NCBI GenBank assembly: GCA_937886715.1
Contig: CAKZZD010000020.1
Coordinates: 20,591-84,590 of the forward strand
Direction of reading: 5' to 3'
From: an uncultured Bacteroidales bacterium
GTDB lineage: Bacteria; Bacteroidota; Bacteroidia; Bacteroidales; P3
Length of the DNA stretch: 64,000 nucleotides
The position numbers and the translations under genes were made by a program. The notes below the pieces were generated by a model. The model searched no databases and was not told the DNA's origin. It saw nothing but the letters and a program-made list of their open reading frames with translations. Shown piece after piece: positions 3,189-41,387 of the stretch. Numbering within the stretch: the stretch's first letter is position 1; the number at the start of each line of letters is the position of its first letter.

Positions 3189-3245
3189 CGTCTGTTGTAC
3201 GACTGTTGTACGAAAAAAGTTCGTACAACAGTCGTACAACAGACG
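3189..3245. repeat. Perfect 26-bp inverted repeat (5-nt loop) built from 11-bp direct repeats
   Basis: The sequence is cgtctgttgtacgactgttgtacgaa-aaaag-ttcgtacaacagtcgtacaacagacg. It lies in the divergent intergenic region between wza (3032) and the P-loop gene (3371). Confidence 0.9.
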
Positions 3246-21838: not shown

Positions 21839-22281
21839 CTCAATCAGATTTTAAAAGAATCATGGATAAGGACTTGATATATACTATTATTGGATGCGTA
21901 CTGAAAGTTCATTCAAAATTAGGTCCGGGCCTTTTAGAGTCTGTTTACCAAAAAGCATTGATGATTGAATTGGACAATGAATGCCTTTCGGCAGAAGAGG
22001 AAGTGCCATTAGAAATAATGTATGATGGAAATAACCTCGGATTAGGTTTTAGAATGGACATCTTGGTTGAAGGCTAGATTATCCTTGAACTAAAATCCGT
22101 ATCAGCTTTAGAAAAAGTACACTTCAAGCAGTTACAAACATACCTGAAACTATCGAACAAACCTTTGGGATACCTAATAAATTTCAACGTGGACAAAATG
22201 GTTATCGGCTCAAGCATCCATCGCATCACAAACATCAACTATCAAGAATAACTCTTTTATAATCTTTTACAATCTGATTGA
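21839..22281. mobile_element. 443-bp inverted-repeat-bounded cassette carrying a GxxExxY pseudogene
   Basis: The left arm is ctcaatcagattttaaaagaatc (21839-21861). The right arm is tcttttataatcttttacaatctgattga (22253-22281), whose reverse complement tcaatcagattgtaaaagatt matches 19/21. Confidence 0.5.
21862..22251 (+). pseudogene. GxxExxY family gene interrupted by an in-frame TAG
   Basis: The sequence MDKDLIYTIIGCVLKVHSKLGPGLLESVYQKAL...DILVEG is followed by TAG at 22075-22077. The same frame then continues IILELKSVSALEKVHFKQLQTYLKLSNKPLGYLINFN... to TAA at 22249-22251. Confidence 0.75.
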
Positions 22282-22292
22282 AATTTAAGTCC

Positions 22293-23314: not shown

Positions 23315-23413
23315 CTCAATCAAATTGTAAAAGATTTAAAAAGAAAAAACTATTTTTTTACATCCTATTAGCAATAGTAACCATCTTTTATAATCTTTTA
23401 AAATCTGATTGAG
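23315..23413. repeat. Empty copy of the 21.8-kb cassette inverted repeat (about 30-nt arms, 39-nt loop)
   Basis: ctcaatcaaattgtaaaagatttaaaaaga ... tcttttataatcttttaaaatctgattgag. The right arm is almost identical to 22253-22281 and 34822-34851. Confidence 0.85.
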
Positions 23414-23422
23414 ACAAACAAT

Positions 23423-34795: not shown

Positions 34796-34797
34796 TT

Positions 34798-34851
34798 CTA
34801 ATCAGATTTATCACAAATGATTCTTTTATAATCTTTTACAATTTGATTGAG
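34798..34851. repeat. Third copy of the cassette inverted repeat (full right arm, stub of left arm); a further degenerate right arm lies at 34889-34908
   Basis: ctaatcagattt ... tcttttataatcttttacaatttgattgag, and further on tcttttagttctgattgtg. Confidence 0.8.
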
Positions 34852-34924
34852 AAGAAACAAAACGACTCAGAATGACTTCTTCGTGCTTTCTTCCCTATTC
34901 TTTTAGTTCTGATTGTGATATAGA

Positions 34925-41202: not shown

Positions 41203-41387
41203 TCAGAAACATCGCTGTTGAAAAAACAGTTCACAAATTGGCTGTCACCATCCCTGAAAGCAGATTGTAAATGACTGATATAATGCACCTATTTTAAAAT
41301 TAAGAATTTTTAACAATAAAATATAGACATTTTCTGCTTTCGGCACAATAATAAAATCACATCGCCGTTAAAATAATTTAAAATACC

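Follow-up and report, generated by a model that had tools for sequence, protein, structure and literature searches.

The 64,000-nucleotide stretch of DNA analysed here (the window) comes from a 2.5-Mb draft genome with 55% GC, designated G000; other G-numbers denote the genomes of relatives, L-numbers the contigs or loci compared, and C-numbers the contigs within a genome. The window contains a glycan locus, in which we focused on three gene junctions: J1, between GT2a and GT2b; J2, between GT2b and a deacetylase gene; and J3, between a gene for a 467-aa protein and a GT4 gene.

An initial annotation had reported three nearly identical 30-mers, at 22253, 23384 and 34822, each 10–74 nt upstream of the next start codon. 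We searched the window with the 30-mer TCTTTTATAATCTTTTACAATCTGATTGAA and recovered these three copies, at 22253–22282 (0 mismatches), 23384–23413 (2 mismatches) and 34822–34851 (2 mismatches); 100 shuffles gave an expectation of 0 matches by chance. The distances from the arm end to the next ATG were 10, 9 and 73 nt, respectively. Reverse-complement left arms were found at 21839–21858 and 23315–23344, the former of which pairs as an inverted repeat with 22263–22281 (95%) and with 23394–23422 (93%). The features at the three junctions were as follows.

21839..21858, + strand: left arm of the J1 cassette, CTCAATCAGATTTTAAAAGA; found as an inverted-repeat match and one 10-nt unit short relative to relatives (G002 compared)
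21862..22251, + strand: GxxExxY / PDDEXK_3 gene of 129 codons with TAG at 22075–22077, a probable pseudogene (PF13366, TIGR04256, translation)
22253..22282, + strand: right arm of the J1 cassette, three 10-nt units (TCTTTTATAA, TCTTTTACAA, TCTGATTGAA); the GT2 start (22293) follows after 10 nt
23315..23344, + strand: left arm of the J2 gene-less hairpin; the hairpin is orthologous in G002, G043, L139 and L078
23345..23383, + strand: loop of the J2 hairpin, 39 nt; site-specific and conserved at orthologous loci
23384..23413, + strand: right arm of the J2 hairpin; the deacetylase ATG (23423) follows after 9 nt
34797..34808, + strand: left-arm stub at J3, TCTAATCAGATT, 12 nt; begins 2 nt past the stop codon of the 467-aa gene
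34809..34821, + strand: J3 remnant of the last codons of a GxxExxY gene, TATCACAAATGAT; 11 of 13 positions match the 3' end of the G002 cassette, TACCACAAATAAT
34822..34851, + strand: relic family-A right arm at J3; 30-mer match with 2 mismatches
34889..34917, + strand: family-B right arm, TTCTTTTAGTTCTGATTGtg; the GT4 ATG (34925) follows after 7 nt; relatives have arrays of tandem A and B arms

Anatomy of the elements

The arms begin with CTCAATCAG and end with CTGATTGAG. In general plan, two or three 10-nt units (ATTKTAAAAG) come after a terminal 9-mer, CTCAATCAG; the 30-mer arms in the window have three tandem 10-nt units each. The sequence at 34889–34917 had been read as a degenerate fourth copy of the 30-mer. 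An arm is indeed present there, but it belongs to a sister family, B, which has the consensus TTCTTTTAGTTCTGATTGAG and is common in relatives. We concluded that each 30-mer is a terminal arm of an intergenic hairpin element, and that these elements make up one small family, A, whose sister is B. The family takes three forms: full cassettes, in which the arms surround a 129-codon GxxExxY gene in the same orientation as the host operon; gene-less hairpins of 80–100 bp; and solo arms, relics and mosaic arrays.

All three forms are represented in the window. J1, at 21.8 kb, is a full cassette (21839–22282) with a nonsense codon in its gene. J2, at 23.3 kb, is a 99-bp hairpin without a gene, and its left arm and 39-nt loop are as originally annotated; the RNA of 23315–23413 folds at −25.3 kcal/mol (z = −6.2). 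The view of such hairpins as gene-less, MITE-like relatives of the inverted-repeat cassette was also borne out. At J3, at 34.8 kb, the decayed state suspected from a left-arm stub could be specified further, because 13 nt matching the last codons of the A-type gene are still in place and thus indicate that the cargo was lost by internal deletion. J3 is what remained of a cassette after a deletion of ~400 bp had removed the gene and most of the left arm. The hairpin fold has been lost from this copy (z = −0.7). Between the J2 loop and the cassette ends, no convincing homology was seen by eye in the sequences compared; the J2 hairpin may have arisen by deletion or may represent a hairpin lineage of its own.

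The cargo gene

Both halves of the J1 gene (21862–22251) matched PF13366 (2.3e-20 and 2.3e-12), and the first half matched TIGR04256. The amber codon at 22075–22077 stands in for a residue of the DILVE-x-x-IILELK block. On an independent metagenome contig (L205) the cassette gene was called as 71 aa; the TAG is thus probably real rather than an assembly error. Among the intact A-type cassette genes of relatives, dN/dS was 0.10–0.13; these genes are under purifying selection, which indicates that the cargo works in genomes other than G000.

Eight residues were invariant in 59 homologues (G23, E26, Y29, D66, E76, K78, Q90 and Y94). We take E26, D66 and E76-x-K78 to be the catalytic E...D...ExK of PD-(D/E)XK nucleases, and Q90xxxY94 to be a RecB-type QxxxY motif. 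The AlphaFold (AF2) model of the GxxExxY protein had a pLDDT of 95.5, and the solved folds nearest to it were Cas4 SSO0001 as the best match, followed by lambda exonuclease, AdnAB and Bax1; a search of the PDB with the GxxExxY sequence itself gave no match. Based on the model, the cargo is predicted to be a minimal Cas4/RecB-like PD-(D/E)XK nuclease. The GxxExxY/PDDEXK_3 family is large, with 7,975 of 8,000 candidates in one search scoring at E ≤ 1e-10, and a 2012 survey of PD-(D/E)XK proteins gives its function as unknown (PMC3424549). In the literature on GxxExxY, PDDEXK_3 and PF13366 we found no description of these elements. The other three GxxExxY genes of G000 have separate arms, built of 9-nt units.

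Genomic and taxonomic distribution

The family-A/B arm core occurs at eight loci in G000. Three of these lie in the window, where they cluster inside the glycan locus over a span of about 13 kb. Of the five outside the window, one separates serC from a serA-type dehydrogenase gene, one follows trmD, two lie beside a LOG-family gene and a Ser/Thr kinase gene, respectively, and the last is at 66 kb of contig C2. We searched 40 relatives in all. Arms were carried by 7 of the 24 congeneric genomes, while the 16 other families gave just two single matches with two mismatches, neither with an extended arm. The element family thus appears limited to one uncultured Bacteroidales genus, and to some species only.

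The family was also present in rumen, gut and bioreactor metagenomes. About 83 of 120 metagenome matches were dropped because the extended arm was absent; the remaining 37 loci comprised 18 gene-less hairpins, 3 GxxExxY cassettes, and several solo arms and mosaic arrays. Their flanking genes included those for a serA-type dehydrogenase, groEL, murD, an amidohydrolase, an aminotransferase, murC/mpl, ispG, tyrS, fcl and GT4. The sites include housekeeping junctions (serC–serA, groES–groEL, murD), and glycan loci are thus not the element's specific setting. The initial annotation had held that a ubiquitous genome-wide REP without enrichment in glycan loci would refute its reading of the repeats. 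The elements are in fact REP-like, genome-wide at low copy number and found beside housekeeping genes, but 3 of the 8 loci do cluster in the glycan locus.

All copies were placed between protein-coding genes, none of them in helix 25 or 45 of 23S rRNA. A search of Rfam over 20.5–36 kb at E ≤ 1 detected no rRNA or other RNA family. Viral contigs gave no sign of carriage by phages: their ten 19-mer matches included none with an extended arm and were chance matches.

Conservation of the arms

The J2 hairpin was ~94% identical between G000 and G043, whereas the third codon positions of the adjacent GT2b gene were 76–77% identical to those of G002 and G043. Likewise, the J1 right arm matched that of G002 at 28 of 30 positions, compared with 72% identity of the enclosed genes, for which dS was saturated. 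In these comparisons the arms were far more conserved than synonymous sites.

Conservation did not extend to the pairing of the arms. Arms of the same copy agreed at 25.6 of 30 positions, and arms taken from different copies at 26.1 of 30 (permutation p = 0.997). Over 12 hairpins there were 0 compensatory pairs, no shuffle paired less well, and in 9 of the 12 copies two stem positions were unpaired. The constancy of the arm sequence, but not of the pairing, suggests that the arms are recognised by their sequence, in the simplest case by a DNA-binding protein. The lack of compensatory changes speaks against a constraint on RNA structure alone.

Orthologous junctions

The block of GT2a, GT2b and deacetylase genes is syntenic in about 12 congeners, and its junctions were occupied as follows.

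J1 (GT2a–GT2b), A-armed cassette: G000, G002, G013
J1, mixed A/B cassette: G094
J1, B-armed cassette: G043, G071
J1, solo arm: G106
J1, unrelated repeat: G099
J1, empty (genes abut or overlap): G010, G096
J2 (GT2b–deacetylase), A hairpin with the same loop: G000, G002, G043
J2, B hairpin: G094, G106
J2, other arm families: G099, G115
J2, empty (genes abut or overlap): G010, G096, G075

At J3 (467-aa gene–GT4), G010 and G121 have a complete GxxExxY cassette whose arms are quite different, and contigs bearing P0031 (L199-type) have a full cassette with A' variant arms. We concluded that the elements are gained and lost within the few nucleotides that separate co-transcribed genes.

Other orthologous sites were inspected in the same way. 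The groES–groEL junction of G000 (C16, ~83200–83303) holds a hairpin of 8-nt units (TAATGCGT and AACACAAT), and that of a relative whose GroEL is 98% identical (L147:2225–2305) holds a family-A hairpin instead. The hairpin family at this fixed site appears to have turned over. In one locus (L096:2232–2246) the murD reading frame runs five codons into the left arm and ends at a TGA inside it; in G000, murD overlaps the next gene (ATGA) and no element lies between them.

Two larger insertions were also seen at these junctions. J1 contains an extra gene of 1.7 kb in G013, G115 and G121. At the GT2b–deacetylase junction of G056 (L057, contig C9) there is a 1.2-kb insertion encoding a protein with an HVHVIL motif, which by eye we take to be a Y1 HUH (RAYT-like) transposase; tblastn with this protein detected no homologue in G000.

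Copying, arrays and insertion sites

The common 80-bp hairpins sort into loop types, each found at several unrelated junctions. Two loop types were present at no fewer than four (≥ 4) non-orthologous sites each, among them serC–serA, mpl–ispG, murD–amidohydrolase and groES–groEL. The recurrence of gene-less hairpins with the same loop at unrelated sites indicates that the hairpins were copied as units. Three hairpin copies share flanks past the hairpin ends and are nested in another repeat family. Identical cassette proteins, on the other hand, shared a single site in every place listed (8 of 8 for J1 and 6 of 6 for J3), so that these comparisons yielded no direct sign of recent cassette transposition.

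Comparison of filled with empty sites (J1, J2, murD–amidohydrolase and groES–groEL) revealed no target-site duplication. No clear target motif was seen either, apart from a frequent TTTAAA(G) on one flank.

In some relatives A and B arms alternate in tandem and in the same orientation: L022 (G013:C10:90401–90804), L023 (G013:C74:38220–38388), L019 (G014:C34:28–272) and L075. These arrays have periods of 54–78 nt and near-identical spacers, and are BIME-like. An identification as CRISPR arrays was rejected, since the 'spacers' in G013 and G014 are near-identical and A and B arms alternate, as in plain tandem duplication.

Module borders

The repeats had been described as lying at the junctions of gene modules, and as possible sites or scars of the shuffling of biosynthetic modules. 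Although the sites do separate genes, recombining modules do not have their borders there. Breaks in homology with G002 occurred at 15.9, 20.96, 24.19, 26.11 and 30.66 kb, and breaks with G010 and G121 at ~30.66–30.70, 36.9–37.3 and 39.4–39.6 kb. The block containing the 467-aa gene has its upstream edge at ~33.39 kb, where gene content changes relative to other contigs and GC also changes. No arm was found at any homology breakpoint (at least eight positions, in G002, G010, G121 and other contigs).

The identical J1 cassette protein was indexed in 84 contig blocks. At 8 of 8 places listed, the order GT2a, cassette, GT2b, hairpin, deacetylase was intact and the outer neighbours differed. The J3 cassette is similarly internal to a conserved block of the 467-aa gene, GT4 and a 429-aa gene. 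Since conserved blocks enclose the elements and the breakpoints lie elsewhere, the elements are passengers within modules rather than boundaries, and the idea that they shuffle modules was not supported. Two further details of the initial annotation had to be revised. The GC transition assigned to 34.8 kb sits at ~33.0–33.4 kb, at the start of the 33392–34795 gene, and the supposed left-arm relic before wza (41258–41274) is an isolated match of 15 of 17 positions with nothing else arm-like around it.

One tandem-unit hairpin (CCCTCCTCACA units; L059:3298–3400, contig C28 of G010) flanks one side of a 2-kb acyltransferase-gene insertion, at the position that corresponds to 30.66–30.70 kb of the window. 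G121 has a similar acyltransferase-gene insertion without a hairpin.

Other tandem-unit hairpins in the genome

We detected 111 inverted-repeat loci in G000. Most were short hairpins with arms of tandem 11-nt units, belonging to the families CTGTTGTACGA, CCAACTCCTAC and CCCCTCCAACC; examples are 3189–3245 of the window (C20:23779–23835) and C9:22941–22991. No gene-bearing copy of the 11-nt-unit hairpins was seen in G000. Tandem-unit families other than A/B have many more copies in this genome, roughly 15–35 in the largest. At C6:21535–22015, a 120-aa 23S_rRNA_IVP reading frame (PF05635, four-helix-bundle) lies between inverted arrays of 8-nt units (AATTCGTT-type). By its layout, the packaging of this reading frame appears to be the same as that of the GxxExxY cassettes.

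Discussion

We think it likely, on balance, that these elements are selfish hairpins of a REPIN/MITE-like and also IVS-like kind with a Cas4/RecB-like nuclease as cargo; their movement and the fate of their RNA are the parts that we infer. The arms would be sequence-specific recognition sites for the cassette nuclease or for a host factor, and the gene-less hairpins would be non-autonomous copies mobilised in trans, in the way that RAYTs mobilise REPINs. In the operon transcript, the arms may fold into a stem of ~30 bp that RNase III is probably able to process, as it does with the intervening sequences of 23S rRNA. Such processing would make an insertion tolerable inside an operon, and an RNase III gene is present in G000. 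Binding or cutting of the arms by the GxxExxY protein is putative. Some observations count against a mobile element: the copy number is low, at 8 loci in G000, and the A-type nuclease gene is broken here, yet the hairpins persist. The absence of target-site duplication and of a clear target motif, and the restriction of identical cassette proteins to a single site in the places listed, weigh on the same side. The presence of different arm families at the same junction across genomes (J1–J3 and groES–groEL) speaks against simple random insertion, and would be explained most simply if insertions survived preferentially when they landed in selfish DNA already present.

We weighed three other explanations of the hairpins. 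They could be RNA elements selected by the host, for intercistronic processing, for stability or as translation spacers, with the nuclease gene as an occasional passenger. The conservation of the J2 hairpin, loop included, relative to synonymous sites fits this idea, as do the strong RNA fold (z = −6), the RNase III gene, the arm ends ~10 nt ahead of start codons, and the filling of the same junctions (groES–groEL, J1–J3) by unrelated arm families, as if a hairpin were 'wanted' there. However, orthologous junctions do without a hairpin in G010, G096 and G075, and at murD in G000 itself; the 34.8-kb copy no longer folds, and Rfam had no match in the region searched. The 0 compensatory changes, pairing below that of shuffles and two stem positions unpaired in most copies are also difficult to reconcile with selection on a folded RNA, and we regard this explanation as unlikely. 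A sequence that is strictly conserved without covariation, in units with a period of 10 nt, would be compatible with an immobile binding or architectural site for a host protein, the phased T-tracts giving curved DNA or a site for a nucleoid protein. The patchy presence of the elements in the genus, the empty orthologous sites, the loops conserved at unrelated sites and the association with a nuclease gene cassette leave that idea with the least credence of all those considered here.

The exchange of polysaccharide gene modules at the arms, as recombination sites or scars and in spirit like integron attC sites, was already disfavoured by the analysis of module borders. It draws on the three loci that cluster in one glycan locus, on the extra 1.7-kb gene at J1 in G013, G115 and G121, and on a solo left arm in G121 where the downstream gene differs. 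Against this, the cassette and the hairpin are internal to conserved blocks whose neighbours are what varies, none of the homology breakpoints with G002, G010 and G121 is at an arm, the same elements are present in housekeeping operons, and only 3 of ~25 junctions in the locus have arms. We judge such exchange to be very improbable. In the annotation of polysaccharide loci, hairpins of this kind should not be taken to mark where modules end or where recombination occurs.

Returning to selfish hairpins with a nuclease cargo, we also put forward a broader version, which we offer tentatively and consider possible rather than probable. The GxxExxY cassettes and gene-less hairpins could together form an undescribed class of mobile DNA, in which a ~15-kDa Cas4/RecB-like nuclease recognises arms of phased 9–11-nt units and moves or maintains both the cassette and the non-autonomous hairpins between co-transcribed genes. 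Newcomers would preferentially replace, or nest in, resident hairpins, which would explain the different arm families per junction, and the 23S rRNA intervening sequence (IVS) would be one special case. If the nuclease does act on the arms, the system would represent a new kind of small mobile element within operons and would give a function to a large 'unknown' protein family.

Known systems share several of these properties. In integron attC arrays an imperfect inverted repeat follows every cassette and an integron integrase lies alongside; here, only 3 of ~25 junctions have arms, and the same elements are present in housekeeping operons. MITEs are, like the hairpins, short, AT-rich, gene-less and bounded by terminal inverted repeats, with a longer gene-bearing element as their relative; at J3, internal deletion gave rise to one copy here. 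Unlike in MITEs, target-site duplication was not found, the parent element encodes no recognised transposase, and the common 80-bp hairpins have loops of their own that differ from the cassette's internal ends. The J3 relic is the only case that shows direct derivation from the longer element by deletion.

In REPIN/RAYT systems, REP doublets form hairpins and are accompanied by a REP-associated tyrosine transposase (PMC3116915, PMC3337134). The similarities are hairpins of 80–100 bp made from two inverted short repeats and dispersed in intergenic DNA, mainly between co-oriented genes, a low-copy gene between the same inverted repeats, the absence of target-site duplication, and mosaic arrays like BIMEs. 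The cargo is different, being a PF13366/TIGR04256 PD-(D/E)XK (Cas4/RecB-like) nuclease and not a Y1 HUH (IS200/IS605-like) transposase. The 5' end of REPs has a conserved GTAG or CGTC tetranucleotide (PMC3733652), whereas the arms here consist of tandem 10-nt units without such a tag, and there are ~8 copies rather than tens to hundreds per genome.

The 23S rRNA intervening sequences of Coxiella burnetii and Leptospira (PMC4990558) likewise form cassettes of about 430–450 bp, in which terminal inverted repeats give a ~28–30 bp stem around a small, often decaying reading frame. Tandem short direct repeats occur in the stem region of both; in C. burnetii these are tandem heptamers, and the stem is cut by RNase III (PMC4990558). 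The present elements differ in lying between protein-coding genes of operons and not in a 23S rRNA helix, in their GxxExxY reading frame, and in having gene-less hairpin copies dispersed in the genome; excision by RNase III is known for the intervening sequences and is proposed here by analogy. The orthologous sites provide a natural series of empty junction, gene-less hairpin, full cassette and decayed cassette, and this series links the GxxExxY proteins both with a REP-like hairpin repeat and with the way in which rRNA intervening sequences are packaged.
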